From the NCBI GenBank assembly GCA_963757945.1, contig CAVWTN010000002.1, forward strand, positions 1,606,974-1,670,973: 64,000 nucleotides of DNA, written 5' to 3'. Below are positions 4,194-21,402 of this stretch, in pieces; within the stretch, counting starts at the first letter, position 1; every line of letters starts with the position of its first letter. The notes under the pieces were generated by a model that was not told where the DNA came from, searched no databases, and saw only the letters and a program-made list of their open reading frames with translations. The position numbers were made by a program, and so were the translations under genes. The stretch is from Vulcanimicrobiota bacterium. Lineage in GTDB: Bacteria; Vulcanimicrobiota; Vulcanimicrobiia; Vulcanimicrobiales; Vulcanimicrobiaceae.

Positions 4194-4398
4194 CGACCCC
4201 GTTTTGGACCGGACACGCAGCATAGCTTAAGGCCATAGGCGTAGGCCTATGCCTTGCGTATGACTATGACGGAGCGAATCGAGAATCATCACCGGCTGGA
4301 GCGGCCCCGTTTTGGACCGGACACGCGGCATAGCTTAAGGCCATAGGCGTAGGCCTATGCGTATGACTATGACGGAACGAATCGAGATCATCACCGGC
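4194..4398 (+). repeat. Tandem direct duplication (2 x about 102 bp) of the IS left terminus plus the first 14 codons of OrfA. The upstream copy is degenerate.
   Basis: 4194-4296 (tggagcgaccccgttttggaccggacacgcagcatagcttaaggccataggcgtaggcctatgcCTTGCgtatgactatgacggagcgaatcgagaAtcatcaccggc) versus 4297-4398 (same without the 5-bp and 1-bp insertions). The second copy carries the intact OrfA start ATGCGTATGACTATGACGGAA. Confidence 0.85.
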
Positions 4399-5603
4399 GT
4401 CGAGCGCCGGCGGCGCTACTCCGTGGAACAAAAGGTGCGCCTGGTCGAGGAAACCCAGCGGCCCGGAATGTCGGTCTCCCAGGTGGCGCGAATTCATGGC
4501 GTCTCCCCCAGCCTGCTCTTCCATTGGAGACGACGCATAGCCGAAGGCAGCCGCCGAGCCGTCCGCGCCGACGATGAAGTCGTCGGGGCCAACGAGGTGC
4601 GTGAGCTCAAGCGCCAAGTGCGTGAGCTCGAGCGCATGCTCGGCAAGAAGACGATGGAGAACGAGATCCTGCGCGAGGCGCTGACGCTAGCGCAGGAAAA
4701 AAAACTGCTCTCGCGCTTGCCATCGCCGCCAGCGGACGATTCCCGGTGAAGGCGATCGCCGATACGCTCGAGGTCAGCCGCTCGAATCTCATCGAGCAAA
4801 TCGCTCAGGGCCGACGATCGCGTCGGGCCTACCGTAAGGTCGAGGACGGGGAGTTGCTGGATGCGATCCGGCCGCTCGTCGACAAGCGACCGACGTACGG
4901 CTACCGTCGCATCATGGCCTTGCTCAACCGGGAACGGACCAACGCTGGGCTGCCGCGGCTCAACCACAAGCGGATCTATCGCGTCATGCGTGCCGCCAAT
5001 CTGCTCTTGCAGCCGTGCACCGGCAAGCGGATCGATCGCGTCCACGATGGCGTGGTCCAGACCCTGCGCTCCAACATGCGCTGGTGTTCCGATGGCTTTG
5101 AGATTCACTGCTGGAACGGGGAGATCGTTCGCATCGCCCTCGTCCTGGACACCTGCGATCGCGAGGTGATGGCCTGGGTGGCCAGCACCGCCGGCATCAG
5201 CGGCGAGATGGTGCGAGATTTGATGCTGCTCTCCGTCGAGCGCCGCTTCGGCGGCTACCGCACGCGCATCGGATCCAATGGCTCTCTGACAACGGTAGTG
5301 GCTACACGGCGGACGATACGATTGACTTTGCTCAGGCCGTTGGCCTCTGGTCGTGCTTCATACCCGTGCGCAGCCCTCAGTCCAACGGGATGTCGGAGGC
5401 GTTCGTCAAGACGTTCAAGCGCGACTTCGTCCGCTGCAATCCGATCCCCAACGCCGAGACGGTTCTCGGCAACCTCGACGCCTGGTTCGAAGACTATAAT
5501 ACCGTTCATCCCCACAGCGCGCTCCGGATGCTCTCGCCGCGAGAGTTCATCAGCACCAATTCATCACTCGCTGCGTTTTCCGGCTTTCATAGGGGCAACT
5601 CCA
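4297..5603 (+). mobile_element. IS3-family insertion sequence of the IS407 group, about 1.3 kb. The right end is inferred from an imperfect inverted repeat (ccggtccaaaacggggccgctcca-like versus ...ggggcaactcca). Boundaries are approximate.
   Basis: OrfA and OrfB are in -1 frame relation. An A8 slippery run lies at about 4694-4701 inside the overlap. OrfB carries the IS407-like motifs MRWCSDGFEIHCWNGE ... IQWLSDNGSGYTA ... SPQSNGMSEAFVKTFKRDF. Confidence 0.7.
4357..4749 (+). CDS. IS3-family transposase OrfA (HTH plus leucine zipper).
   Basis: MTERIEIITGVERRRRYSVEQKVRLVEETQRPGMSVSQVARIHGVSPSLLFHWRRR, followed by a leucine heptad region. It ends just after the A8 slippery site. Confidence 0.85.
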   Translation: MRMTMTERIEIITGVERRRRYSVEQKVRLVEETQRPGMSVSQVARIHGVSPSLLFHWRRRIAEGSRRAVRADDEVVGANEVRELKRQVRELERMLGKKTMENEILREALTLAQEKKLLSRLPSPPADDSR

Positions 5604-5659
5604 CCGCCCACTTAGGATGCCCTCTATTTACGATCAACAGGTGTTTACGGCTTCATTGA
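4746..5659 (+). pseudogene. IS3-family (IS407-like) transposase OrfB with a DDE integrase core. It carries a +/-1 frameshift near 5270-5290.
   Basis: Frame A (4746 ORF) holds the N-terminal part of the DDE core up to ...VERRFGGYRTR. The conserved IQWLSDNGSGYTADDTIDFAQAVGLWSCFIPVRSPQSNGMSEAFVKTFKRDF continues in another frame and matches the 5366..5659 ORF. The frame change lies at cgcatcGGATCCaatggc. Translation then runs beyond the inferred IS end to a stop at 5659. Confidence 0.75.
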
Positions 5660-6958: not shown

Positions 6959-7360
6959 ATGCAAAGGAACCACGAATCTCCGGACCCGGAGGTTCCCGCC
7001 AAGGCAGCGCGCCGGCGGTTTTCTGCGGCCGAGAAGGCCCGCATTCTCGAGGAGTACGACCGCGCCTCGGCGATCGAGCGAGCGGCGATCTGCCGCCGGG
7101 AGCGCATCTACTCATCGCATCTCTTCCACTGGCGTAAGCAGCGCGCCGCCGGAGCGCCGCTCGACGCCAAGCGGGGGCGTAAGCCCGATCCGCAAGGCGT
7201 GGAGAACACGCGCCTGCGCAAGGAGAACGCCACCTTGGCGGAGCGCCTGGCCAAGGCTGAACGGGTGATTGACATCCAGGGAAAAGCATACGCGCTCTTG
7301 CGGTCCGTAGTCGGCGAGAGCGCGGAACAGACGGACTTGCCGCCGTCGAGAAAATCGTAA
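6959..7360 (+). CDS. IS3-family transposase OrfA.
   Basis: RRRFSAAEKARILEEYDRASAIERAAICRRERIYSSHLFHWRKQ (HTH), then a leucine zipper LRKENATLAERLAKAERVIDI. Confidence 0.8.
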   Translation: MQRNHESPDPEVPAKAARRRFSAAEKARILEEYDRASAIERAAICRRERIYSSHLFHWRKQRAAGAPLDAKRGRKPDPQGVENTRLRKENATLAERLAKAERVIDIQGKAYALLRSVVGESAEQTDLPPSRKS

Positions 7361-8526
7361 TGGATCTCGCGGCCGAGCTTGGCGAACGCGAAGCTTGCCG
7401 GCACGTTGGGCACGCGCGAGCGAGCTTTCGGCGTCGTCACGTGCTTGAGCCTCCAGCGCTCGAGGATCCGCCTGAACGAGTGAACCCTTCCTCGCGGCCC
7501 TCGCGGCAACAGCGGCGGTATCAAATACGGCAACTCACGCGAAGCGAACGCAGCGATACCCGCACGCGCCGTCCGTCATCGTTGGCGCTGAGCATGGAGG
7601 AACGTCAGATCGTCTTGGATGCGATTCATCAGCCGCGCTTCGTAGATCGCAGCGTACCGCACATCCACGCGACGCTCATGGACGAGGGGACCTATCCCTG
7701 CTCGATGGCGACGATGTATCGGGTTCTCCACAGCGTCGGCGAGGTCGGCGAACGGCGCGATCAGGCAACGCGGCCTGCACGCGTAAAGCCTGAGCTCTGC
7801 GCGACGGCGCCGCGTCAGGTGTTTGCCTGGGACATCACCAAGCTGCACGGGCCGCGGAAATGGAGCTATTTCTATCTCTACGTGATCGTCGATATCTACA
7901 GCCGCTTCGTCGTGGGTTGGATGGTCGCCGATCGCGAAAGCTCCGAGCTGGCTCGCATTCTGCTGTCGGAAACGATCCGCAAGGAAGGCGTCGACCCGGC
8001 AAAGCTGACGGTGCATTCTGATAACGGCAGCTCGATGGCCTCGAAACCCGTCGCCTTCCTCCTTGCCGATCTAGGCGTGACCAAGAGTCATTCTCGGCCT
8101 CACGTCAGCGATGATAACCCGCACATCGAGTCGCTGTTCAAGACCGTCAAGTATCAGCCGGAATTCCCAAAGACGTTTGCTAATCTCGCTGAGGCGCGCG
8201 TCTTCTGCCGCACCTTCGTGCAGTGGTACAACACGCAGCATCGCCACAGCTCGCTCGCGCTCGTATCGCCGTCAGACGTCCATCATGGCCGCGCAGGCGC
8301 GATCCTACGGCAGCGCCAGGTCGTGCTGGACGCGGCGTATGCCAAGCATCCCGAGCGATTCGTTCGCGGCGCTCCGAGAGTTCCGCAACTTCCAACCGCA
8401 TCATACATCAATCGCCCCAAAGAAACCGCAAGCGACACGCCACAACCGTCGCAGATCCAGTCTCGCGACTACAGCAACTCAGCGGAGATTGCAGCAACGA
8501 TCAAGCCACTTGAACTCAGCGCTTGA
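7360..8526 (+). CDS. IS3-family transposase OrfB (DDE integrase core). It is probably expressed as an OrfAB fusion by -1 frameshifting. The ATG at 7360 is unlikely to be the native start.
   Basis: The DDE motifs are as above. The first about 80 codons are R-rich and look like an out-of-frame artefact or the frameshift window. Confidence 0.75.
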   Translation: MDLAAELGEREACRHVGHARASFRRRHVLEPPALEDPPERVNPSSRPSRQQRRYQIRQLTRSERSDTRTRRPSSLALSMEERQIVLDAIHQPRFVDRSVPHIHATLMDEGTYPCSMATMYRVLHSVGEVGERRDQATRPARVKPELCATAPRQVFAWDITKLHGPRKWSYFYLYVIVDIYSRFVVGWMVADRESSELARILLSETIRKEGVDPAKLTVHSDNGSSMASKPVAFLLADLGVTKSHSRPHVSDDNPHIESLFKTVKYQPEFPKTFANLAEARVFCRTFVQWYNTQHRHSSLALVSPSDVHHGRAGAILRQRQVVLDAAYAKHPERFVRGAPRVPQLPTASYINRPKETASDTPQPSQIQSRDYSNSAEIAATIKPLELSA

Positions 8527-9230: not shown

Positions 9231-10142
9231 TTAGCGGGTAGCCTGCGGCCGCCTGTGTGCTTGGCAGATCAAGCACGCGCACGTCATACGGGTGAAATGA
9301 CGAACCCCAACGGCGACTCCACGAGCGCTGTCCGCGCGCTGGAAAATCGTCCGAAAGAGTGCCGTCTCGTCGTTCTCAACGTAACGACGGAGCGCGTAGC
9401 TGCAGAGATCGGCGAGCTGAACCATCCGCGTGAGCTTACTATCGACAAAAAGGGGTGTTTCGATGATTCGAAAGATGTTGGTCCAAAGAGTCCCGTGTTG
9501 GTGAAAGTTGCGCATCATTTCGGTGTGTTTCGTAGCGACGGTTTGATTATTGTCGTGGACCAGGATTCCGAAAATCCGGTGCTCGACGTCTGGGCTCAAA
9601 TTCGCAAGGTACAGCTCGAAGCGCGAGACTACTTGCTCAAAAGCTTGCTCACCGATATCGCGCTGCATTATTGTCGGATCGAAGTGTTTCTTGTCGATGC
9701 ACTCCGCAAAAAGTCGTGCAAAGGCCCAACTCGCCACGCGTTGAGCGATCTCGTCGATAAGGCGTTTGCGCTCAGCAAGTGTAAGATGTACGTACGCTCG
9801 TGTGTGCGCATAGTTCTTCTTTTGCTGGCGATACGTTTTATTTTGCTGGGCGCGCTGAAGTTTCAGTAGGTGAGTTACGCGCTCCCGTTCAACCGCTGAT
9901 CTCCGTGTCGCAGAGTCCATTGTTTCGAAGCCGGGAATCCGCGTTTGCTCAGGATAGTCGCGCAATATCCACGCTGTATGAAGCTCTTCCTTCTCAAGGC
10001 GGTAGTGCGCTAGAACGTCCGTAATCTCACGATCCGCATCACGCCAGCTGGAGATCGGGATTGAAAGCCCCGCGAGCACAAAGTGCGAGGTATTTCCCGG
10101 GACGTCGGCCGTTCCCGATTCGTCTATATAACAGATGTACAT
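9231..10142 (-). CDS. DUF3800-family protein.
   Basis: It starts MYICYIDESGTADVPGNTSHFVLAGLSI, the hallmark YIDESG N-terminus of DUF3800. It sits in an island of about 50% GC. Confidence 0.6.
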   Translation of the reverse strand: MYICYIDESGTADVPGNTSHFVLAGLSIPISSWRDADREITDVLAHYRLEKEELHTAWILRDYPEQTRIPGFETMDSATRRSAVERERVTHLLKLQRAQQNKTYRQQKKNYAHTRAYVHLTLAERKRLIDEIAQRVASWAFARLFAECIDKKHFDPTIMQRDIGEQAFEQVVSRFELYLANLSPDVEHRIFGILVHDNNQTVATKHTEMMRNFHQHGTLWTNIFRIIETPLFVDSKLTRMVQLADLCSYALRRYVENDETALFRTIFQRADSARGVAVGVRHFTRMTCACLICQAHRRPQATR

Positions 10143-10215: not shown

Positions 10216-10516
10216 GCGACTCAACCCAGACGCACGGTAAAACGTAGCATGGGGGAAAAGCGGTGTCAACAGAGACCAACCTGGGAGAGACGAGCCTGAA
10301 GCAGCTAGGCGATTTATGTGGATACATGCCCGCCTCTGTGCCCCGCTCGGGTGAAATGACGCCGCCGATGTGCCGCGCCGACCCAGCCGGGCCATTTCGG
10401 CTTGCTAGCCGCGCGCCTCGCCACGGCGATCACTAGATCTGGCGGCGGTGGAAACGGTTGGCCACGCTTGGGAAGCCCATGCCGACCGAAGGTCCACCTA
10501 CGGCCTCGGGAAGCTA

Positions 10517-11089
10517 TCAGACGCGAGTCCGTCGTTCCCCTGGGAGCTCTTCTCGGACATGCCGTTCTTGCGCCGGTGTTTCGATTGTTTTGGGGCGCGC
10601 CTCGCGGACGGCGGTGATGGCTGCATCCGGGTTCATTCCAAGCTCCACCAGCAGCCGGGCCGCGATCATGCCGGTTCGGCCGAGGCCCGCTCGGCAGTGA
10701 ATCACGACGAGACGGCCGGCGCGTAGGCATTCGCGCGCTTCGCGGCCGACGGTTCGCCACGCTTGTTCGAATGCCGGGCCGGGCACGCCGGCATCTGGGA
10801 TCGGGAGGTGCCGCCACGGAAGGCCGCTAGTCGCAAGCACACTTGCGAAATCAGGAACGCCGAGAGCCTTGAATTCGTGCGATTCGTTGAGCGTGATCAG
10901 CAGGCACGGATCCACGCGGCGTATCACCTCGAGGTCGGCGTCGAGGTCGCGCCGCCAGCGAATGCCGTTGAAGGATAGATCGTCGGAACGCCCCGGGCAC
11001 AGCGTCATGCCGATTCGCCCGCCCGTTCCCGGCACGTCGACCATGTCGACCCTCAGCGGATGCGTAGCGCTCGTCCTAAACTCGCTCAC
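10517..11089 (-). CDS. Dual-specificity (Cys-based) protein phosphatase family protein.
   Basis: The CX5R P-loop is VVIHCRAGLGRTGMIAARLL. The size (about 190 aa) fits the DSP fold. Confidence 0.75.
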   Translation of the reverse strand: MSEFRTSATHPLRVDMVDVPGTGGRIGMTLCPGRSDDLSFNGIRWRRDLDADLEVIRRVDPCLLITLNESHEFKALGVPDFASVLATSGLPWRHLPIPDAGVPGPAFEQAWRTVGREARECLRAGRLVVIHCRAGLGRTGMIAARLLVELGMNPDAAITAVREARPKTIETPAQERHVREELPGERRTRV

Positions 11090-12041
11090 TCAAGCCCCCG
11101 CACCGTGCGCTTGCAAGCACTTCCTTGAGAACGCCGTCAAGCAGCGTCCGTGCGCTGAGCCCGTCGATCCACGCCGCGGGGAAGGCCCCCAGTCCCGAGC
11201 GAGCGCCGACGATCGCGCCGGTGATCGATGCGATCGTGTCGGTATCGCCGCCGGAGGCCGCCGCGACGCCGATCGCCGCCACCGGATCGCCGGCGAAGCA
11301 CGTCGCGATGGCATCCGCGGCGGCAACCGTTTCCCACGCGCTCATCGCCACGTTGCGCAGCCGGCTCGGCAAACGCAGCCCGGACGGCGCGAGATCGCGG
11401 TGCAAGTCGTGCCACGCTTTGACGAACGTCGCATCGACGATACCGGCGGGGACATCCAGCGACGCTTCCACGCCGTGCAGCGCGTCATGCACGATCGCCG
11501 CTTGGGCCGCGGCTGCGGCGATCGCGGCCGGATGCCCATGCGTCACGCGCGCTTGCACCGCCGCAACCTCGAGCACTGTATCGCGATCCGCGAGAAACCC
11601 GACCGGGTGGACGCGCATCGCCGTTCCGTTGCCGCCATCCTCGGGGTGACCGCACGTTGCGGGATCCGCCCCTCGCCCCAGACGCGCGAGCGAGCGCGTT
11701 GTGGCGCCGCCGGGCCCGCCGGTCCAAAACATCTCGCCGAACCGCCCGGTATGGCGATCGAGATCTTCCAGGAAGCGCTTGGCAAATAACCCGGCCGTCA
11801 ACGGCTCGCTGCTTGCAACCGCCGTTGCGACGGAAAGGGCCATCGCCGTATCGTCGGTCGGCCGGCCTGGTTCACGCGGGGACAAGAGCGAACCGGGCAT
11901 CGCTCGCAAGTATTCCCGTACGATGGGCTCACCGAGACGGCGCTCGATCGCGTCGCTATTGATCAATTCGAACGCCGACCCGAGAGCGTCGCCGATCGCG
12001 GCGCCGTACAGGCAGCCCGCGATGCGGTCGGCGCGCGTCAT
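11076..12041 (-). CDS. ADP-ribosylglycohydrolase (ARH/DraG family). The listed ORF extends to 12080.
   Basis: RIAGCLYGAAIGDALGSAFE, PTDDTAMAL, GGNGTAMRVHPVG and ASGGDTDTIASITGAIVGA are all ARH family signatures. The start at 12041 gives an ATGA overlap with the upstream gene. Confidence 0.9.
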   Translation of the reverse strand: MTRADRIAGCLYGAAIGDALGSAFELINSDAIERRLGEPIVREYLRAMPGSLLSPREPGRPTDDTAMALSVATAVASSEPLTAGLFAKRFLEDLDRHTGRFGEMFWTGGPGGATTRSLARLGRGADPATCGHPEDGGNGTAMRVHPVGFLADRDTVLEVAAVQARVTHGHPAAIAAAAAQAAIVHDALHGVEASLDVPAGIVDATFVKAWHDLHRDLAPSGLRLPSRLRNVAMSAWETVAAADAIATCFAGDPVAAIGVAAASGGDTDTIASITGAIVGARSGLGAFPAAWIDGLSARTLLDGVLKEVLASARCGGLSERV

Positions 12042-12502
12042 GCGGCTTCCGATGTTGAGAGCTTGCTCTCGAGCGCGCACAGCGTCTCGTCGCCGGAGAC
12101 GATGCGGAAGATCTTCGGATACTGTTCCTCGGCCGTCCAGTAGAAGAAGCCAAGAAGATTTCCGAGGACCGACGCGTCGAGATGCTCCGCCCGATAGTCG
12201 ATCTCAAGGACCAGGCCGTCCGGCCTGACCGCGAACTTCGCGACCATCATCGCCGTGTTCGCGCGCATCGTCGCTTCGAAGAGCTGCGCCCGCAGGCCGG
12301 CTTCCTCGGGGACGTTGCAGACGACGGTGGAGATGTGCAGCCAGTCCGCGGTCAACGCCGCGACGATGAACCATTGCCGCGTACGGCCGTGGTAGGAGAG
12401 GCCGCGGCGCACGGGATCGAGGCGAAACGATGCGAGGCCGGCTTCCTTCATCAGGGTCTTGAGCCGCGCCGAGGCTTCGGGTTGTGGATTCTTGTCTTCC
12501 AT
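12038..12502 (-). CDS. YbjN-like (putative sensory transduction regulator / T3SS-chaperone-like fold) protein.
   Basis: A 154-aa acidic protein. FRLDPVRRGLSYHGRTRQWFIVAAL...LVLEIDYRAEHLDASVLGNLLGFFYW resembles the YbjN family. It is the first gene of a three-gene minus-strand operon. Confidence 0.5.
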   Translation of the reverse strand: MEDKNPQPEASARLKTLMKEAGLASFRLDPVRRGLSYHGRTRQWFIVAALTADWLHISTVVCNVPEEAGLRAQLFEATMRANTAMMVAKFAVRPDGLVLEIDYRAEHLDASVLGNLLGFFYWTAEEQYPKIFRIVSGDETLCALESKLSTSEAA

Positions 12503-12566
12503 ACCGATAGTGTAGGTGAATGTGCACCAAGGCGTCAGTCGGTCAGTTGCCGGCCCGGGTCAGAAT

Positions 12567-13565
12567 ATGACCCACCCCCCTCGCGCCGCGCACGGGGGAA
12601 AAGTCGAGCGCTTCGTCTCGGTCATTCGCATCCTCGAGCAGGATCGCAAGATCACGAAGAAGCGCATCTACGAGTTGTTTGGCGTCAAGTCCGAGAGTTC
12701 GTTCAAGCGCATCAAAGCGCAGCTTGCGTACGCCGGGCTGCCGATCAGCTACGATCCGGACGACAAACACTTTCACGTTCCGCCGGGCGCTTCGATCGCG
12801 CGCTATGGCATCGATCCGCGCACGCGCGTGCAGCTCGCGCAAGTTCGCGCCGCGATCTCGGCGCTCGGCGGCCCGATCTCCGAAGCGCTCGACGACGTGC
12901 TGGAAGCCCTCGACGCGCGCATCGCGATCGGCGATTGGGACGGGACGGCCGTCGTCTCCTCGCGCCATCCGCAGCCGCGCGGCGGGCCGGCCTTTTTCGA
13001 AACGCTCGACCGCGCGCTTTCGGCGCTACGCGAGCATCGCTGGCTTTCGTTCACGTATAGCCGCAGCGACGGTTCCCACGCCGATCGCCGCACCGTCGCG
13101 CCGTACGCCGTGCACACGCACAACGGGCGCTATTATCTCTGGGGCTTGACGGAAGGCGAGCTGGAGCCGAAGCTCTACGTGCTCGATAGCGTGAGCGATG
13201 CGACGATCGAGGACGACACGTTCGTTCCCGATCCGGGGCTCAGTCTCGACGATGCCTTGCGCTACAGCTTCGGCACGATGATCGGCGACGGCAGCCCGCA
13301 GCGCGTCGTCGTGCGGATCGAGCCGGCGGCGGCCGCCTTCGTGCGCTGCCGCCAATGGCCGGCGGAAGTCGAAACCGCCGACGAGCCCGACGGCTCCGTG
13401 CGCCTGACGTTCGAACTCACGCGCTTCGCGGAGATCGTCGGCTGGGTCCTGAGCTTCTGCGGCGCCGCCACGATCGTCAGCCCGCCGGAGGCGCGAGCCG
13501 AGCTGCACGCGGCCGCCGTGCGCGCTGCTGAGGCGTCGGCGGACGCGATCGAGGCCCTCGGCTAG
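12567..13565 (+). CDS. WYL-domain transcriptional regulator (HTH plus WYL plus C-terminal WCX-like domain). The start is chosen at ATG 12567; the listed ORF begins at 12516.
   Basis: N-terminal wHTH is VERFVSVIRILEQDRKITKKRIYELFGVKSESSFKRIKAQL. The WYL core is HADRRTVAPYAVHTHNGRYYLWGL. It is divergent from the ARH operon, with an intergenic gap of only about 65 bp. Confidence 0.8.
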   Translation: MTHPPRAAHGGKVERFVSVIRILEQDRKITKKRIYELFGVKSESSFKRIKAQLAYAGLPISYDPDDKHFHVPPGASIARYGIDPRTRVQLAQVRAAISALGGPISEALDDVLEALDARIAIGDWDGTAVVSSRHPQPRGGPAFFETLDRALSALREHRWLSFTYSRSDGSHADRRTVAPYAVHTHNGRYYLWGLTEGELEPKLYVLDSVSDATIEDDTFVPDPGLSLDDALRYSFGTMIGDGSPQRVVVRIEPAAAAFVRCRQWPAEVETADEPDGSVRLTFELTRFAEIVGWVLSFCGAATIVSPPEARAELHAAAVRAAEASADAIEALG

Positions 13566-13876
13566 CGCACCCTTCGACGGGCTCAGGGTGACGGCGGGGG
13601 GGTGGCGCGAAGGTTGCGCCCGCCGCACTCGTCACCCCGATCTAGCCGAGCTGTGATCTCGCCGCATTCGTCACCCTGATATCTTGGCGCCGCCGGGTGT
13701 TCCCGGTGATCCGGGTCGAAGACCCGGGCCTCCGCGTCGGTGACCGCGATGCGGCGGCGGAGGCTGGCGAGTTGTTCGGGCGTGACGTGCGAGGGCGTGG
13801 GCTGGACGCGCTTCAACGCGACGCTCGTGAGGTCTGCCTCGACCGGCACGCAGCGAAGCCCGGCGATGTCATCTCG

Positions 13877-13945
13877 CCGGCTGAGTATCCAGACGTTGCC
13901 GTCGACGTCGCGCTCGTTCTCGGGAACCTTTGGCGAACGCATTGA
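13877..13945 (+). pseudogene. Short 3' remnant of a Uma2-family endonuclease paralog.
   Basis: ...PAEYPDVAVDVALVLGN* versus the C-terminus of the intact gene ...PVEFPDVAVDVALVLGES* at 16066-16125. Nucleotide identity is about 85% over about 50 bp. The upstream sequence has no Uma2 similarity. Confidence 0.3.
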
Positions 13946-13967: not shown

Positions 13968-14312
13968 TCAATCGAGCTGGAGAAGAGTGGCGAGCTTCTT
14001 TCGCACGCGGCGCAGGGTAGCCGGGGAGATCTCCTCGGCGAAATCGGCGAAGCGGGCGCGCCAATCGAGGCTCTTGACCTGATCTGCAAGCACGACGCCG
14101 GCGATCGAGCTGCCCGCAGCGAGCGGAACCTCGAACGGATATCTCTTGCGCTGCGAGGTCACGGGCACGCCGACGGCAAGCGAGGTCTTCGCATTGTAGG
14201 CACGCGGCGACAGTACCAAGAACGGACCGCGCCCAGCCTGTTCGCGCCCGCGCTGAGGATCGAGCGAAAGCCAAACGATATGGCCCGTATCCGGAACGTA
14301 CGGTTCTACCAA
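13968..14312 (-). CDS. mazF: MazF/PemK-family type II toxin (endoribonuclease).
   Basis: PDTGHIVWLSLDPQRGREQAGRGPFLVLSPRAYN...GVVLADQVKSLDWRAR matches the PemK/MazF pattern. It overlaps the upstream antitoxin gene by 7 nt. Confidence 0.8.
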   Translation of the reverse strand: MVEPYVPDTGHIVWLSLDPQRGREQAGRGPFLVLSPRAYNAKTSLAVGVPVTSQRKRYPFEVPLAAGSSIAGVVLADQVKSLDWRARFADFAEEISPATLRRVRKKLATLLQLD

Positions 14313-14643
14313 CGTTCGAAACCGGTGAGATCATCAAAGACCGGCCCGTGGAGATTCTCCGGCGTAATCCCTTCGATCAGGTCGGCGAGCGCCCGAGAAG
14401 GTGCCTTGCGAACGTAGATCATCCCGTGACTGACCGCCATCTCGACGGCCGCTCCATCCTCGAGCTCGATGTGCTTCGCAATCGCGCTCGGAATACGGAT
14501 CGCAAGCGAATTCCCGGCTTTGAAAACGCGGGCGTCTTGAATGACAAGCGCATCGAAATCGTCGCTCGCGATCTTGACGAAGTCGCTGGCCTCCGCGCGG
14601 ACAGCGGCAGGCAACGGATACGTTGTCGCGGGCGGCTTGTTCA
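14306..14643 (-). CDS. AbrB/MazE/SpoVT-type antitoxin. The start at MNKPP is uncertain.
   Basis: VFKAGNSLAIRIPSAIAKHIELEDGAAVEMAVSHGMIYVRKA is a swapped-hairpin AbrB-type motif. It sits immediately upstream of the toxin. Confidence 0.6.
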
Positions 14644-14736
14644 TACAATGTATATACACAAGAGGATGCGGACCGTCAAGCGCCTCCACCATGAAGGTCG
14701 CGCGATGACCCAACGTCACCGGTTGCGGCGGTTCTG

Positions 14737-15342
14737 CTACGCGGTGACGGTCGCGTGCGCGGGGATGCGCAGCTTCACTTCGCCGAAGACGATCTCGGGC
14801 GGATGCGCGAGCAGGCTTCCGAGGTTCTTGTCGGCCCACGCGCGCGCCCGTTCCCGCGCGGTTTTCGCGGACTCCTCATCCGCGAACACGAGCAGCCAGG
14901 AGAGGGCTCCGTGGCCGGCGTCGATCGCGCCGTGCGCGGCGTACCCGGGCAGCTCGGCGATCGTCGGGATGTAGCCTTCGACGATCCGCTTCTTCGCTTC
15001 CTCAACCTCGCCCGGCTTCGTCGCAAGGTGCCACACGAATCCGTGGCCGGAGTGTACGTGCTCCTTGACGTCGCGGAACGCGACCGGACCTTCGCTGATC
15101 TTGGGGTGGCCGAGCTCCGTCGCTGCTTGATTCTCACGGACCCAACCCGCGGCGAGTTCGGCCCCCAGCTCGTCGTCGAAGACGCTTGCGGTGACCACGC
15201 CGTCCGGTCCGGCGTCGATCAGCGTCCACGAGACGAAGCCCCAAGCGTGGCTGATCGGGTGCATGAAGCGCTCGCGCGTATGACGGACGATCGCATCGAT
15301 CTGCCCGGGCTCGGTCTTGTAGTGTCGGACAACTCCAAACAT
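14737..15342 (-). CDS. Hypothetical protein, 201 aa, possibly with two small alpha+beta (ABM/Dabb-like) halves.
   Basis: An uninterrupted ORF with protein-like composition and high GC3. No firm family assignment. Confidence 0.45.
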   Translation of the reverse strand: MFGVVRHYKTEPGQIDAIVRHTRERFMHPISHAWGFVSWTLIDAGPDGVVTASVFDDELGAELAAGWVRENQAATELGHPKISEGPVAFRDVKEHVHSGHGFVWHLATKPGEVEEAKKRIVEGYIPTIAELPGYAAHGAIDAGHGALSWLLVFADEESAKTARERARAWADKNLGSLLAHPPEIVFGEVKLRIPAHATVTA

Positions 15343-15558
15343 CCAAAACCGCCTTTCACGCCGTGCTCACGCGGCGCTTCACGAACTTTTCGCGACCTCG
15401 CGAACCCGCCCCCGTCGGGTGGCGCCGACGCGCAGGCGATCGCCCCTCGCCGCCCTTCGGCAAGTATTTCTCGGCAAGTGGCTAGCATGACGCGATGGGC
15501 GGGTGGAGAGGCATTGACCTGCGATGCAATTCTGCCCCAAGCGAGGTATGATCCGGAC

Positions 15559-16125
15559 ATGTCTACCGCGGCCGAGCGGCTCCACCGGATTACGACGGAC
15601 ATCTACGAGCGCATGGCCGCCGGCGGCTTGTTGCCCGAGGGTGGCATCGAGCTCATCGATGGCCTCGTTGTCGAGATGAGCCCCAAAGGTGACCGGCACG
15701 CCTATGCGGTCACCCGCCTGAACGAGCTACTCGTCGACCAGCGCCGGGGGCGCTACGCCGTGTATGCCGACAGCCTGAGCCTGCGCCTCGGGCCGCGCGA
15801 CGAGCCGGAGCCCGATATCGCCCTGGCTCGGACGACCCGAAGCTATGCGCGCGAACGGCCGCGTCCCGACGAGATCGCGCTGATCGTGGAAGTCGCTGAT
15901 TCGTCCCGCGCGTTCGATCTCGGTGAGAAGCGCGCCAAGTACGCCGCCGCCGGGATTCCGGAATACTGGGTCGTCGACTTGCAACGAAACGCGGTCAACG
16001 TCTTTCGGAGTCCGCGCGGCGACCGCTACGTCGATGCGCGCGTGGCGAAATCCGGTGAGGCAATCGCTCCAGTGGAGTTTCCCGACGTCGCCGTCGACGT
16101 CGCGCTCGTGCTCGGGGAATCGTAG
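15559..16125 (+). CDS. Uma2-family (DUF820, PD-(D/E)XK) endonuclease.
   Basis: MSTAAERLHRITTDIYERMAAGGLLPEGGIELIDGLVVEMSPKGDRH ... PDIALIVEVADSSRAFDLGEKRAKYAAAGIPEYWVVD. The listed ORF 14755..16125 carries a long antisense N-terminal extension, which is rejected. Confidence 0.8.
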   Translation: MSTAAERLHRITTDIYERMAAGGLLPEGGIELIDGLVVEMSPKGDRHAYAVTRLNELLVDQRRGRYAVYADSLSLRLGPRDEPEPDIALARTTRSYARERPRPDEIALIVEVADSSRAFDLGEKRAKYAAAGIPEYWVVDLQRNAVNVFRSPRGDRYVDARVAKSGEAIAPVEFPDVAVDVALVLGES

Positions 16126-16159: not shown

Positions 16160-17056
16160 TTACTTCAGCGCTTCGATGGTCCAGCCGCTCACGTTGACGT
16201 ACGGCACGTTCTCGAGCGAGATCGAGCGGGTCTCGACGAGCGAGAGCCGTTCGAGCGCTGCGTGACGCACGCGGCCGTCGACGCTGACCGCGACCGTCAA
16301 TTGCTGGCGCGCGGTGCCGCCGCGGAAAGAGTCGCCGGCCGGCGCGGCATCGCCGCCGCCACTCTGAGGGCCGGCGCCTTCAGGCGGGCCTCCGCCGGGG
16401 AAACCGCCGCCTCCGGGAAAGCCCCCGCCGAAGCCGCCTCTGGTGTGAAAGCCGCCTTGCCGCGATCCGTCGCCGAGCGACGAGCCGCCGGCAGGCTGCT
16501 GCGCTTGAACGAGAACCTGCCCTGCACCGCGCAGGTCGTAATCTGCGCCGGATGCGTTGGTCACGGTCAGCGGGACGATGACTTCCGTTGCCGCGCGGCG
16601 CTCGCCGGGAACCGTCAGCGTTGCGCTCCAGCCGTCATGCGTCGCCGGCTCGTTTGCGAAAAGCTCCGTCAGCCGATTGATTCCTTCGATTGCGTCGCGC
16701 AAGGCGGCGTTTTGGTTCGCGCTTCGATCGTTCTTCGGAATCTCCAAACGGCCGTCGGGCGCCACGTTGAGCACCGTCAGATCGGGCGGGAGTCCGCCGT
16801 AGGAGCCGTCGAGCGCAAGCGTCGACGGCGACTTGCGCCGCAACGTGACATCGGCGACCGAGGTCTGCGGTCCGGCAAGACTCTGCGTCGTGCGCGTGAT
16901 GCGATAGTGCAGCGTCGCGCCGGTCGGCGGGATCACGGACGGCGCGTCGGCGAACGCCGGAGCGGCCCACGCCGCGGCGCAGAGCGCCGCGGCAAATGCC
17001 GCCGGCGCAGGCGAAAACGAAGCCGGCAGAAGCGCCGGCACGTGCTTGTGTCGCAT
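16160..17056 (-). CDS. Secreted hypothetical protein with a Gly-rich (GGF/GGFP) segment.
   Basis: Signal peptide MRHKHVPALLPASFSPAPAAFAAALCAAAWAAPAFA. There is a globular N-terminal region followed by a GGFHTRGGFGGGFPGGGGFPGGGPPEG low-complexity tract. The upstream part of the listed 16160..19381 ORF is antisense to the TIR-STAND gene and is rejected. Confidence 0.5.
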   Translation of the reverse strand: MRHKHVPALLPASFSPAPAAFAAALCAAAWAAPAFADAPSVIPPTGATLHYRITRTTQSLAGPQTSVADVTLRRKSPSTLALDGSYGGLPPDLTVLNVAPDGRLEIPKNDRSANQNAALRDAIEGINRLTELFANEPATHDGWSATLTVPGERRAATEVIVPLTVTNASGADYDLRGAGQVLVQAQQPAGGSSLGDGSRQGGFHTRGGFGGGFPGGGGFPGGGPPEGAGPQSGGGDAAPAGDSFRGGTARQQLTVAVSVDGRVRHAALERLSLVETRSISLENVPYVNVSGWTIEALK

Positions 17057-17128
17057 AGCGGCACTGTAAGCGCTTAGTCTTACAAGCGGCTTGGAAAGGC
17101 CGGCTCCTGCGCCTGGTATGATGGTGCC

Positions 17129-19789
17129 GTGATCTTCATCAGCCATTCCAGCCTCAATAATGAAAAAGCGATCGCCGTGCGCGATTGGCTCGTTGAGCAA
17201 GGCTGGGGGGCGTCGCGGATCTATCTCGATCTTCAGAACATCCACGCGGGCGAGCGCTGGCGCGAAGCGCTCAACGACATCGGCTCGAACTGCGAGGCGG
17301 TCATCGCGTGCCTTTCCGATGACTGGTTGCGTTCGCCCGAATGCTTGCGCGAATTCAATCAGGCCGAGGCGACCAGCAAGCCGATCTTCCCCGTCGTCGT
17401 CGCGCCGATCACCGAGCGCATCCCGCGCTTCATCACGGACCTGCAGTTCGCCGACATCAGCGACCCGGCGTTGCAGGCCGAGGGCTTCGAAAGCCTCCGG
17501 CGCGGACTCTTGGCGGCGCGCATCGTTCCGGATGACCCTTCGGCCGCTTCCGACGGAAAGTCCGCGCAGGCGCGCGCTGCCGCCCGTTTCGCCACGAACT
17601 TGCCCAAACAAGTCTCGAGCTTCGTCGGGCGCGAGAGCGTCGTCGCGGAAATCGAAACGCTGTTGCAAGACGCGCGCCTGGTCACGCTGTTCGGCGCGGG
17701 CGGCCTCGGCAAGACGCGCTGCGCTCAGGAGTTGGGCGCGCGCTTGCTGGAGCAGTTCGACGGCGGCGTGTGGTTCGTCGATCTCGCGCCCTTGCGCGAT
17801 CCGGCGCTCGTCGCAAGCGAGATCGCGACCGCGTGCGGCGTTCGCGAAGCGCCGGGAAAATCGATGCTCGACGCGCTGACCGCGCACCTGGAACGCAAAC
17901 GCACGTTGCTGCTGCTCGACAATTGCGAACACGTCGTCGCGGAGGCCGCGAAGACGGCGGCCGCGGTCCTCGCGGCCTCGGCAAACGTCAAGATCGTCGC
18001 GACGAGCCGCGAGCTCCTGAAGGTCGTGGGCGAGGCCGTCTATCAGATGCCGACGCTCGCCGTGCCGGAACGCAGCAAGCACCTCGCGCCGGAGAGCGCG
18101 CTGACGTACGGCGCCGTCGAGCTCTTCCACGATCGCGCGCGCGCCGCGAACCGCGCGTTTCGGCTGACCGCGGACAATACGCCGGTCGTCGCCGAGATCT
18201 GCGCCCGGCTCGACGGCATTCCGCTTGCGATCGAACTCGCCGCCGCGCGGATGCGGATGCTCTCGCCGAACCAACTCGCAAAGCAGCTCGACGAACGCTT
18301 TCGCGTGCTCACGGGCGGCGACCGCACGGCACTGCCGCGCCAGCAGACGATGCGGGCGCTCATCGATTGGAGCTACGATCTGCTCTCCGCGCAAGAGCAG
18401 CGGCTCTTCCGCGACATCTCGGTCTTCGCGGGCAGCTTCTCGTTTCAAACCGCCTGCGTAGTTTGCGCGAACGCCGAGACGAGCGAACTCGACGTGCTCG
18501 ACGTGCTCTCGTCGCTCGTCGACAAGTCGCTCGCGGTCGCGGAACCTTCGGATTCGGACGCGCGATGTCGCGTGCTCGAATCGATCCGCGAATACGGCCG
18601 CGAGAAATCGATCGCAGCCGGTGAGGCCGCTGATGTTTCCGGGCGCCACGCGGCGGCCTACGCGGAACTCGCCGAACGGCTCGAACGCGAGTACGAAGAG
18701 TTGCCTTACGAGCTGTGGCTCGAGCAGACCGCGAGCGAAGTCGAGAACGTGCTTGCCGCGCTCGCATGGTCGTTCGGCGGTTCGGGCGACGTGCTGGTCG
18801 GGCAGCGGCTCGCCGCGACGCTGCGCCGCGTGCTCGTCGCGTTCAGAGCCGCAGAAGCGCGCCGCTGGGTCGCGACGGCGCTCGAAGCGGTCACGCCTGC
18901 CACGCCGCAGCCGGTGATCGGACGACTCGAACTCGCCGAAGCGACGCTCGCCTCGACGATGAGCCAGGTGCGTCCGGCCCTCGCCGCGGCGCAACGCGCG
19001 CTCGCGATCTTCGAGGGGCTGCGGGACGCGCGCGGGGTCGCCAACGCCCAGCGTTGGGCGGGGCGTTCCCTCATGCTCGTCGGCGAGATCGACGAAGGCG
19101 CGGCGTTGCTCGAGCGATCCCTCGCGACGCTTCGGGGCCTGGGCTTTCGGCGCGCCGGCGGCATCTTGCGCGACCTCGGCACGGCGCGCGCGCTGAAGAC
19201 CGACGTCGCCGGGGCCCGCGTGCTCTTCGCGCAGGCGCTCGCGAGCTTCAAGGAGAGCGCCGACGACTACAACATCGCGGTGACGGCTGGGACGCTCGCC
19301 GACGCGGAGTTCCGCTGCGGCGATGCGCGGGCGGCGCTCGTCGCTGGCTTGGAAGGGCTCGAAGCGGCGCGCGCGCGGCATCTCGAGTCGAGCGTGCTCA
19401 TGTGGCTGTTGTGCAATCTGGCCGCGTTCAGCCTCGAGCTAGGGCAGTACGACGACGTGCGCGCGTACGCGCACGAACTGCTCGCGCTGCGGCTCGATGC
19501 GCCCAGCGACATCGACGTCGCGTTCGCGTTGCAGCATCTCGCGGGCGTCGCCACGCTGCGCGAGCCGCCGGAGCCCGGGAGCCTGCGGCTCGCGGCGACG
19601 CTGCTCGGCTTCGTCGATGCGCGGCTCGCGGCGCTCGGCGTCGATCGCGAATACACGGAGCAACATCTCTACGATAAGATCCAGGCTGTCTTACGCAGCG
19701 CACCGGACGAGAACGCGCACGGCGAACCCGCCAGCGCGAACGGCGCGCTCAACGAAGAGGCCGCGGTCGCGCTCGCGCTGACGATCTGA
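17129..19789 (+). CDS. TIR-NB-ARC-TPR protein (STAND NTPase with N-terminal TIR domain).
   Basis: TIR: MIFISHSSLNNEKAIAVRDWL...AVIACLSDDWLRSPECLREF. P-loop: VTLFGAGGLGKTRCAQELG. Walker B: LLLLDNCEHVV. Further NB-ARC motifs: IVATSRELL and GIPLAIELAA. The C-terminal about 350 aa hold TPR-like helical repeats. GTG start. Confidence 0.85.
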   Translation: MIFISHSSLNNEKAIAVRDWLVEQGWGASRIYLDLQNIHAGERWREALNDIGSNCEAVIACLSDDWLRSPECLREFNQAEATSKPIFPVVVAPITERIPRFITDLQFADISDPALQAEGFESLRRGLLAARIVPDDPSAASDGKSAQARAAARFATNLPKQVSSFVGRESVVAEIETLLQDARLVTLFGAGGLGKTRCAQELGARLLEQFDGGVWFVDLAPLRDPALVASEIATACGVREAPGKSMLDALTAHLERKRTLLLLDNCEHVVAEAAKTAAAVLAASANVKIVATSRELLKVVGEAVYQMPTLAVPERSKHLAPESALTYGAVELFHDRARAANRAFRLTADNTPVVAEICARLDGIPLAIELAAARMRMLSPNQLAKQLDERFRVLTGGDRTALPRQQTMRALIDWSYDLLSAQEQRLFRDISVFAGSFSFQTACVVCANAETSELDVLDVLSSLVDKSLAVAEPSDSDARCRVLESIREYGREKSIAAGEAADVSGRHAAAYAELAERLEREYEELPYELWLEQTASEVENVLAALAWSFGGSGDVLVGQRLAATLRRVLVAFRAAEARRWVATALEAVTPATPQPVIGRLELAEATLASTMSQVRPALAAAQRALAIFEGLRDARGVANAQRWAGRSLMLVGEIDEGAALLERSLATLRGLGFRRAGGILRDLGTARALKTDVAGARVLFAQALASFKESADDYNIAVTAGTLADAEFRCGDARAALVAGLEGLEAARARHLESSVLMWLLCNLAAFSLELGQYDDVRAYAHELLALRLDAPSDIDVAFALQHLAGVATLREPPEPGSLRLAATLLGFVDARLAALGVDREYTEQHLYDKIQAVLRSAPDENAHGEPASANGALNEEAAVALALTI

Positions 19790-19845: not shown

Positions 19846-21402
19846 TTAGTGGACCGGGATCGTATACGTCGTCGAGCGCAGCAGCGGCCCGTCCGTCTCC
19901 GTCACCGTGACGGTGCAGTTCGTACCCGAGCTGCCGCTGATCAGGTCGAATTCGACGTATGGTCCCACGGCGTGGAACAGCGCGTGCGTCGACGTTCCCG
20001 AGCTGACGGGCGGGCTCTCCTGCGGACCGCCCGGATCTTTGTAGATCGGGGGCGGCGGCGGAACGTCGCCGTTCTCGTCGGGGCCGTTGTTGACCAGACA
20101 CGAACCGGCCGACGTATCGACCGAGAAACCGCCGCAGATCGCGGGCGCGATGCACGTGCCCGGGACCGCCGTATAGGTCGCGTCGTCCGCGACGAGCAGT
20201 TCCACCGCGTGATGCGCCGGCACCGACGTCGCGGACGGAGCGGGCGACGCCGCAGGGTTGGCGTTGCTGTTGCAGTTGGTGCCGCTCGCCGCGGCGACGC
20301 AGAGCTGCAAATCGGCGACGTTCCCGACGATCACGTTTTGAATCACCGGCACGGTGAATGACGGCGTGACGCACGTCGTCGTTCCGCTCGCCGCGCAGAG
20401 CTGTTCGGACGACGGCCCGTCGAGACCGATGAAGACGCGGTCCGGCGCCGGAGCCCCGACCGTGAACGTGACGGTCGGCGCACCGAACAAGACCGATGCC
20501 GAATCGACGGTGCCGAGCTGGCAATAGAACGACGGAATGCCGAGGATGACGGCGCCGCTCAGCGCCGGAGCGAGCACGTGCCCGACATATGCGGGGAAGC
20601 ACGCCGAGGAGAACATCGTGCCGCCGCCGCCGGTGTTCGCGTAATTCACCACGAGGCTCGACGGCAGCGTCGGCGCGTTCGAGGTGAGCACCGTGTTCGA
20701 TCCGGGGACGATCGGCAAGCCGACTTCGCTCGTCGAATCCTCGGGGATGATGCTGATCTCGGTCTTCGTACGCGGCGGCAGCGTGATGCTCGCAACGTCG
20801 GAGGTGAACGTGATCGAATGCCCGGATGCCGTGACGTCGCCGATCTTCAGCGACGAGACGGTCGCCGGTACGGGCTTCAGTTGAAAGAAGCTCACGCCGA
20901 AGAGCGTTCCGTCGACGCTGCATGGGACGTGCGCGGAGAAACCATCGACGCGCAGCGTGATCGGAAAGGGGAACGGGTTGTACAGCGGAATCGCAAACGT
21001 CGCCGGGCACGTGCGAGGATGATTCCATTGCGCGTGCAGCGACCCGCCCGAAGCAACGGAACCTTGAGGCTGACGGACGCCCAGCAGCAGCTTCGTGCCG
21101 GCCGGCACGTTCGTCGCGTGCACGGTCAGGTTCGCGCTGTACCCGCCCGCCAGCGGGATCGCAAAGGAGCTCGGCCTCGCGGAGAGCGCGGCGCTGACCG
21201 TGGCCTCGCCGCTCTCCGGGCCGGCGGCCGGGTCGACCTGCGGCTGTTGCGCCGGCACGGCGGCCGGCTGCTGCACCGGAGCGGCCGGCTGCGCGGGCAG
21301 CATGGCGCTGGGCTGCTGCATCGAGCTCTGACCGCTACAAGCCCCGAGTGCGAGCGCAATCGACATCAGCGCCGATAGTCCGAGCAAGCGAATAGCGGAC
21401 AT
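19846..21402 (-). CDS. Secreted lipoprotein with a Pro/Gln-rich linker and a Thr/Ser/Gly-rich beta domain.
   Basis: MSAIRLLGLSALMSIALALGACSG signal plus lipobox. The linker is QPAAPVQQPAAVPAQQPQVD. Confidence 0.55.
   Translation of the reverse strand: MSAIRLLGLSALMSIALALGACSGQSSMQQPSAMLPAQPAAPVQQPAAVPAQQPQVDPAAGPESGEATVSAALSARPSSFAIPLAGGYSANLTVHATNVPAGTKLLLGVRQPQGSVASGGSLHAQWNHPRTCPATFAIPLYNPFPFPITLRVDGFSAHVPCSVDGTLFGVSFFQLKPVPATVSSLKIGDVTASGHSITFTSDVASITLPPRTKTEISIIPEDSTSEVGLPIVPGSNTVLTSNAPTLPSSLVVNYANTGGGGTMFSSACFPAYVGHVLAPALSGAVILGIPSFYCQLGTVDSASVLFGAPTVTFTVGAPAPDRVFIGLDGPSSEQLCAASGTTTCVTPSFTVPVIQNVIVGNVADLQLCVAAASGTNCNSNANPAASPAPSATSVPAHHAVELLVADDATYTAVPGTCIAPAICGGFSVDTSAGSCLVNNGPDENGDVPPPPPIYKDPGGPQESPPVSSGTSTHALFHAVGPYVEFDLISGSSGTNCTVTVTETDGPLLRSTTYTIPVH

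Follow-up and report, generated by a model that had tools for sequence, protein, structure and literature searches.

How bacteria answer ADP-ribosylation imposed by phages or competitors is largely an open question, and the main published candidates for such an answer are the "ARG-centric" conflict systems. A compact locus in the genome of a Vulcanimicrobiota bacterium bears on this question. We analyzed a stretch of 64,000 nucleotides of this genome (contig CAVWTN010000002.1, positions 1,606,974 to 1,670,973; hereafter the window, with position 1 as its first letter). At positions 10517-13565, three minus-strand genes, which encode a chaperone-like protein, an ADP-ribosylglycohydrolase (ARH, also called ARG), and a Cys-based dual-specificity phosphatase (DSP), are transcribed divergently from the gene for a WYL-domain regulator. 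What might such a combination do? The first-pass annotation of this DNA took the three-gene operon for a system that had not been described. This does not hold, as the locus matches the ARG-centric systems part for part (PMC9503650, section 3.8). We give an even chance to the reading that the four genes make up one such system, which would undo foreign ADP-ribosylation under the control of the WYL regulator. The kind of system was already predicted computationally in 2022; the locus adds another member and no new kind.

ARG-centric conflict systems were defined by Iyer, Burroughs, Anantharaman, and Aravind (Viruses 2022, 14:1977; PMC9503650, section 3.8, Fig. 7). Their core is an ARG/ARH domain without a coupled ADP-ribosyltransferase (ART) or sirtuin. 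In more than 42% of the systems there is a one-component regulator whose sensor is a WYL or Nudix domain, and more than 55% have a phosphatase, usually of the rhodanese-phosphatase superfamily, that is fused or adjacent (PMC9503650). The chaperone component is a vWA, an SseB, or one of the newly defined TY-Chap1-3 domains, and TY-Chap1 was unified with type III secretion system (T3SS) chaperones and YbjN (PMC9503650). Restriction endonuclease-fold (REase-fold) nucleases, helicases, Macro, NADAR, and HD domains, and calcineurin-like phosphatases appear as variable extras (PMC9503650). Every one of the structural features is found at our locus: an ARH with no coupled ART or sirtuin, a WYL regulator, a phosphatase, and a protein of the peptide-binding chaperone class (TY-Chap1-3, vWA, or SseB). 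No ART, DarT, DraT, or SIR2 match to Pfam was found among the window ORFs scanned (1456-24867) or in the annotated related loci, and the Pfam-annotated ORFs of that range and the related loci likewise contain no nif, type VI secretion system (T6SS), or Tre1 gene.

The resemblance extends to arrangement and setting. In the window the DSP gene is adjacent to the ARH gene and the locus lies in a variable, defense-rich region, while relatives of the locus show fused DSP, Nudix/NrtR, vWA, Uma2, McrBC, and HD partners. The authors proposed that ARG-centric systems undo ADP-ribosylation imposed by viral enzymes (PMC9503650), and the suggestion made earlier for this DNA, that ADP-ribosylation is reversed with the help of a phosphatase acting on an ADP-ribose-related phosphate, coincides with that published, predicted hypothesis. 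There are also differences. The relatives are named Candidatus Velthaea, Baltobacteraceae, and Vulcanimicrobiaceae (Eremiobacterota), and the window lineage is probably Eremiobacterota as well, whereas the examples named in the paper are actinobacteria, planctomycetes, and diverse proteobacteria. The chaperone-like protein of the window scores better with the YbjN model than with the TY-Chap1 model. Finally, the paper proposed that the WYL domain senses ADP-ribose-type molecules and that the regulator is a repressor (PMC9503650), whereas the sequence relatives of our regulator and later work point to single-stranded DNA (ssDNA) as the trigger, with activation possible.

ORF predictions and domain searches agree with the gene identities, the operon with overlapping junctions, and the divergent WYL regulator described in the first-pass annotation. 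The first gene of the operon (12038-12502, minus strand) encodes a 154-residue YbjN/T3SS-chaperone-like protein of the TY-chaperone superfamily. It is followed by the gene for the 321-residue ARH (11076-12041, minus strand) and, as the last gene, by that for the 190-residue DSP, which belongs to the rhodanese-phosphatase superfamily (10517-11089, minus strand). The overlaps, 4 nucleotides between the chaperone-like and ARH genes and 14 nucleotides between the ARH and DSP genes, would fit coupled translation. The start codon of the ARH is ATG 12041 and not GTG 12080: positions 12038-12041 of the plus strand read TCAT, which is an ATGA overlap with the upstream stop codon, an identical public database protein exists for the 321-residue form, and homologs are 317-323 residues long. 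The 334-residue ORF that begins at GTG 12080 gave no database match on exact look-up and was rejected as having the wrong start codon. For the DSP, a start at GTG 11089 is backed by T6, S7, and P11, which are invariant in 19 homologs, and the public call for this protein (P0139, 175 residues) begins at an internal Met and loses 15 conserved N-terminal residues. Many standalone DSP homologs carry the JGI name "ADP-ribosyl-[dinitrogen reductase] hydrolase," apparently by annotation transfer from DSP-ARH fusions.

The regulator gene (12516-13565, plus strand) encodes a wHTH-WYL-WCX one-component transcription factor of 349 residues if it starts at GTG 12516 and of 332 residues if it starts at ATG 12567. 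Regulators of three related loci (L085, L087, and L106) begin further upstream, with an N-terminal (G/D)-P-(G/V)-Q-(N/K) stretch, and the window encodes a G-P-G-Q-N stretch in frame 5′ of ATG 12567. Since the stretch shared by the homologs is also encoded in frame in the window, an upstream start is favored, and translation probably begins at GTG 12516 or 12522. The intergenic gap was previously given as about 65 base pairs (bp). It is 64 bp if the regulator starts at ATG 12567, but the likely upstream GTG start reduces it to 13-19 bp. The divergent control region (12503-12566) contains a candidate sigma-70-type promoter, and part of it is probably coding sequence of the WYL regulator.

If the four genes act together, they should be found together elsewhere. 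Loci were gathered through exact-protein look-ups, a scan of species-representative genomes with an ARH profile, and a metagenome scan with the chaperone-like family, and all loci were then searched with profile hidden Markov models of the four proteins. In the species-representative scan, 6 of 80 loci were close, and the distant ARHs served as the control set; the metagenome scan contributed 15 loci. WYL regulators were counted within about 5 kb of the ARH gene, and DSPs were counted if adjacent or fused. A WYL regulator accompanies the ARH in 13, a chaperone-like gene in 12, and a DSP in 8 of the 16 non-redundant close-ARH loci, versus 0, 0, and 3, respectively, of the 74 control loci with a distant ARH only. 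DSP and ARH are joined in a single polypeptide in 19 of the 120 best ARH homologs. The same four-gene layout with overlapping junctions is present in L087/L088 and L106, where the surrounding genes are otherwise unrelated. The association is far beyond chance, and the conserved neighborhood together with the existence of DSP-ARH fusions indicates that the four genes are functionally linked. Independent scattering of the genes, the outcome that would have spoken against the earlier proposal, is not what we observe.

The composition of the module varies. ARH precedes DSP in the window, L087, and L106; the order is reversed in L004-L006, L060, L080, and L107, and in L084, the single fusion for which we looked at the order of the domains. 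That fusion lies at the end of a WYL-VWA-...-DSP::ARH arrangement adjoining McrBC. L089 combines VWA-WYL with an ARH and a convergent DSP, L107 has a Nudix/NrtR regulator with DSP, ARH, and an HD_4 gene, and Uma2 adjoins the ARH in L085. HD_4 alarmone-type hydrolases occur nearby in L002, L089, and L107. The trio proposed in the first-pass annotation is linked but not obligatory, as the DSP is retained in just half of the close-ARH loci, and the DSP and the YbjN-like gene each occur in other contexts. In L109 (1461-5561), a DSP homolog 73% identical to ours abuts a gene for a 1179-residue protein with RNase_H_2 and superfamily 1 (SF1) helicase domains. On the same contig, L002 has the WYL, chaperone-like, and ARH genes without a DSP, and a gene for a 657-residue asparagine-synthase-like protein follows the ARH instead. 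A further DSP homolog lies beside a TCAD9/APH gene (L108, 6001-8719). Because the DSP and the chaperone-like gene are seen in these other contexts, we conclude that the parts are shuffled as modules.

Are the two enzymes likely to be active? The ARH matches Pfam ADP_ribosyl_GH (PF03747; 2e-54). In an alignment with 29 homologs, E25, T62-D63-D64-T65, and D266-T267-D268-T269 are invariant; from what is known of ARH3 and DraG, we take these residues to hold the binuclear metal site. MJ1187, Tri1 (6dre), a Thermus ARH, ARH3, and DraG are roughly equidistant from our protein (90-112 bits). The fold and the binuclear-metal motifs are shared with Tri1, DraG, and ARH3, all of which remove ADP-ribose from a macromolecular acceptor. 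Unlike Tri1 and DraG, our ARH has no cognate transferase (Tre1 or DraT) nearby. One concern raised at the outset was that the ARH might be a DraG-type nitrogenase regulator in a nif context. Its score with the DraG equivalog model is 75 bits against a cutoff of 337 (TIGR02662), and neither nif genes nor draT are among the Pfam-annotated ORFs of the scanned range; it is not DraG. The score with the Tri1 equivalog model is also below cutoff (NF041672; 60 bits against 490). The DSP matches the Pfam families Tc-R-P (2e-10), CDKN3, PTP-SAK, and DSPc. Nineteen homologs all keep its general acid D99, the P-loop H131-C132-R-A-G135-L-G-R138-T139-G140, and Q174. Among solved sequences, it is nearest to small protein phosphatases (25xa, SsoPTP 2i6i, DUSP23, CDKN3/KAP, and PRL), and the PDB matches also include the polynucleotide 5′-phosphatase BVP (1yn9). 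With complete catalytic motifs, both enzymes look active.

The chaperone-like protein is harder to place. The 154-residue ORF has a weak YbjN match of 18.7 bits, under the gathering score. Among 19 members of its family, Pfam matches are to YbjN in 10, to TY-Chap1 in 7, and to CesT in 5. In structure predictions, which were run on database proteins only, DR_1245 was among the top structural matches. The likeness is to the T3SS class I chaperones and the YbjN family (SicP, YscB, CesT, AmyR, and DR_1245), but the context in the window is without a T3SS. The family is unusually conserved in sequence, with invariant Arg, Trp, and Cys residues; this strong conservation hints at a specific ligand or partner and not at generic peptide binding.

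The regulator matches the Pfam WYL (8e-12) and WCX (5e-14) families and PADLOC WYL models (5e-26). Searched with a profile of eight family members, the PDB gave PafBC (6sj9, 1e-17) and DriD (7u02/7tzv/8tp8, ~1e-16), and no other match at E<=1. The regulator aligns over its full length, wHTH included, to Caulobacter DriD (8TP8; PMC10853764) and shares with DriD and PafBC, the latter from Actinobacteria, the architecture of wHTH, helical linker, WYL, and WCX, although its identity to them is low. Using the DriD residues described to contact ssDNA (PMC9186387), we find that, in the core of the WYL domain, Y168, R178, and Y192 are conserved in the window regulator as Y164, R175, and Y190, that R204 is conservatively replaced by K202, and that an aromatic residue is retained at W206 (Y204). 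DriD R176, K202, R207, Y240, and R288 are not conserved. PafBC and CapW are also described as binding ssDNA (PMC11804915, PMC11662680). The window differs from the DriD system in lacking both a DriD box (CGAC-N7-GTCG) and a RecA-NDp-type element, and the genes under control are hydrolases for ADP-ribose and phosphate, not recA or didA.

In the divergent region, the candidate operon promoter lies on the minus strand and consists of a -35 box (CTGACG, 12538-12533), an 18-nucleotide spacer, a -10 box (TACACT, 12514-12509), 6 nucleotides, and the ATG. These blocks (CTGACG, 17-18 nucleotides, a TAnAnT-type -10, 6 nucleotides, and ATG) are kept in six loci with regulators of 57-100% identity. We propose the promoter from this cross-locus conservation alone; a consensus scan of 10300-13800 gave no canonical promoter or terminator. 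Since only 6 nucleotides separate the -10 box from the ATG, the operon transcript appears to be leaderless, a prediction from spacing. A palindrome-like stretch by ATG 12567, TGACCCGGGTCR (12551-12562), was considered as an operator for the WYL regulator and rejected, as it is not enriched (3 matches in the window against 2.05 expected). It coincides with the G-P-G-Q codons of the likely N-terminal extension of the regulator, the differences between loci include third-codon-position changes, and the stretch is probably coding sequence.

A second group of loci, whose regulators are 20-26% identical to that of the window, has GTGCCA-N6-TGGCA 5′ of the chaperone-like gene, at a constant 11 nucleotides from TAnnnT. 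The general layout of this group is GTGCCA-N6-T(G/A)GCA, 11 nucleotides, TAnnnT, about 6 nucleotides, and the start codon (L084, L089, L009, L093-L096, L098, and L099), and it is present even where no WYL gene is adjacent. At DriD-activated promoters, the spacing between the site and the -10 box is constant, and the site covers the -35 position (PMC13004042, section 13). The second-group layout resembles these promoters; the window-class promoter, in contrast, has an ordinary -35 and no DriD-like site, and no clear operator was found in it.

The setting of the locus is a mobile, defense-rich region. On one side are a gene for a 785-residue HerA/FtsK/TraG-like ATPase (1456-3813) and, just upstream of the system, two IS3-type elements with HTH_Tnp_1 and rve ORFs (4357-5615 and 6959-8526), of which the first has a weaker integrase match and is possibly truncated. 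GC content is about 58-61% across 1-10 kb versus about 66% over the four-gene system. We weighed the gene for a 303-residue DUF3800 protein (9231-10142, minus strand, as the DSP) as a possible fifth member of the operon and discarded it: it lies 374 bp downstream of the DSP gene, has lower GC content, and is not in any related locus, and it is probably unrelated. On the other side lie MazF (13968-14312), MazE (ORF 14306-14839), a long ORF that ends in a Uma2 (REase-fold) domain (14755-16125), an 886-residue TIR-NB-ARC-TPR STAND protein (17129-19789), and a 540-residue SLOG-like protein with a weak N-terminal YAcAr/DprA-like match (21626-23248). The HerA/FtsK/TraG-like and SLOG-like proteins are both in keeping with a mobile or defense island. 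The TIR-STAND and SLOG-like proteins were set aside as functional partners since they are absent from every related locus examined, and MazEF since it recurs only in L085, about 3 kb from the system. Apart from MazEF in L085 and Uma2, which adjoins the module in L085 and L095, no window neighbor recurs near the module. The window MazF is 79% identical to the MazF about 3 kb from the system in L085/L086, which may reflect shared island ancestry and not a link in function. Three ORFs (13583-13942, 119 residues; 14737-15342, 201 residues; and 19846-21402, 518 residues) have no Pfam match; they show a coding-like GC bias at third codon positions (GC3). A 1073-residue, Arg/Ala-rich ORF on the minus strand (16160-19381) overlaps the TIR-STAND gene and is almost certainly a high-GC artifact.

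How might the parts work together as an ARG-centric system? The regulator would hold the operon in check until it binds a nucleic-acid-type ligand. This ligand would most likely be ssDNA that arises in phage attack or DNA damage, since DriD, PafBC, and the WYL repressors CapW and BrxR all sense ssDNA. The ARH would then cut the ribosyl linkage and so release ADP-ribose from host macromolecules modified by a foreign transferase of a phage or competitor. The DSP would remove a phosphomonoester from that target or from the product. The phosphate might belong to a phosphoribosyl remnant that a pyrophosphatase has left behind, to an ADP-ribose-phosphate, to a nucleic-acid end uncovered by de-ADP-ribosylation, or to a phosphoprotein. 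The chaperone-like protein may bind the modified target or the ARH itself.

Several points weigh against this reading. A literature search found no experimental test of any ARG-centric member, and PADLOC-DB v2 has no match for the DSP, ARH, or chaperone-like protein and matches the regulator only with generic WYL/Cas3c-WYL models. Because Cys-phosphatases are unable to split the pyrophosphate bond in ADP-ribose, it is not obvious what the DSP does beside an ARH. Both the DSP and the chaperone-like gene are also found in neighborhoods that lack an ARH, and, strictly, a novel transferase could be encoded among the three ORFs without a Pfam match. With 5 of 10 DriD contact residues kept or conservatively replaced, the case for ssDNA binding by the regulator is suggestive only. 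The sign of regulation is also ambiguous: the fair -35 (CTGACG) fits repression, yet the sequence relatives of the regulator are activators, and the sequence does not tell which applies.

The same features could belong to a branch of the DNA-damage response, in which the ssDNA-bound regulator would induce the cleaning of nucleic acids rather than a defense against ADP-ribosyltransferases. The ARH would clear ADP-ribose from the bases or the phosphorylated ends of DNA or RNA, the DSP would trim terminal phosphates, and the chaperone-like protein would be an adaptor to a DNA-binding partner. Deinococcus DR_1245, which ranks among the top structural matches for this protein, reportedly interacts with DdrB. 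That PafBC and DriD are the only solved structures matched by the regulator family fits this account, as does the fact that all characterized wHTH-WYL-WCX factors sense ssDNA, although defense regulators such as CapW do so too. Chaperone-like genes without an ARH lie after a UvrD/PD-(D/E)XK helicase-nuclease and WYL gene and before a gene for a 368-residue protein without a Pfam match (L096, 4939-7481), downstream of RmuC (L097, 853-3092), and flanked by Uma2 and a Schlafen-type helicase (L095, 4950-9408). However, no canonical repair gene is conserved beside the ARH, and many of the neighbors (McrBC, MazEF, DpnI, Uma2, and TIR-STAND) are typical of defense or mobile islands. The DSP homolog abutting an SF1 helicase-nuclease gene in L109 and the match of our DSP to 1yn9 would suit the trimming of nucleic-acid ends, but the best PDB matches of the DSP are protein phosphatases. 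Likewise, the layout that the second-group promoters share with DriD-activated promoters would suit a damage response, but the window-class promoter has its normal -35 and no DriD-like site. On balance we consider the DNA-damage account rather unlikely, though it deserves to be kept in view. A related proposal is an ssDNA-triggered unit with a DriD/PafBC-like sensor, in which ARH and DSP would together free DNA or RNA of ADP-ribose, phosphoribose, or phosphate adducts, with the YbjN-like protein as an adaptor shared with other ssDNA-induced repair or defense cassettes, such as those with the UvrD-nuclease, RmuC, and Schlafen-type helicase. We hold this to be a long shot.

Two further accounts are less likely. 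The ARH and DSP could degrade soluble molecules (isomers of cyclic ADP-ribose [cADPR], ADP-ribose [ADPR]-phosphates, or 2′-phospho-ADPR) and thereby tune or reset NAD-derived immune signaling or detoxify its by-products. A phosphomonoesterase is chemically sensible on ADPR-phosphates, TIR-STAND and SLOG-like proteins are encoded within 10 kb, HD_4 alarmone-type hydrolases recur near the module, and a Nudix/NrtR regulator, of a type that senses ADP-ribose (PMC9503650), takes the place of the WYL regulator in some versions (L107). The proximity of the TIR and SLOG-like genes nevertheless looks coincidental, given that neither is in any related locus examined, and neither a TIR gene nor a gene for a signal-producing cyclase shows conserved association with the module. 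The peptide-binding chaperone-like and vWA partners suggest macromolecular targets, and phyletic patterns argue that ARG domains prefer macromolecular adducts (PMC9503650). The clearing of cADPR-type signals, one of the options first put forward for this locus, gains no specific support from these data, and we judge the soluble-signal account improbable. An immunity function has a still smaller probability in our estimate. Here, the ARH would be an orphan Tri1-like immunity protein against competitor toxins or the hydrolase of an endogenous switch, in the manner of DraG or a DarG-like antitoxin. The solved ARHs closest to ours include Tri1 (6dre) and DraG, the Pfam family that the DSP matches best is annotated as a phosphatase of polymorphic toxin systems, and ARH-type DarG3 antitoxins have been described (PMC13069673). 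Against this, the ARH scores well short of the equivalog cutoffs for Tri1 and DraG and is not paired with a toxin gene, and T6SS, Tre1, DraT, DarT, and nif genes are missing from the Pfam-annotated ORFs of the scanned range and from the related loci.

Read as an ARG-centric conflict system, the locus is a clean, minimal four-gene example in which both enzymes have intact catalytic motifs. Gene fusion ties the ARH-phosphatase pair together, and the chaperone-like gene accompanies the regulator as often as the enzymes do. As the source lineage is uncultured, homologs in cultivable Proteobacteria or Actinobacteria are better entry points for experiments. Should the ARH and DSP instead act on nucleic acids in the ssDNA-triggered unit outlined above, the locus would represent a bacterial pathway for reversing externally inflicted nucleic-acid ADP-ribosylation, distinct from DarG and from the protein-centered model of 2022. 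Besides being a minimal example, the locus is of value because it supports revising the proposed trigger of these systems: judging from the relatives of the regulator, ssDNA is a more likely trigger than ADP-ribose.

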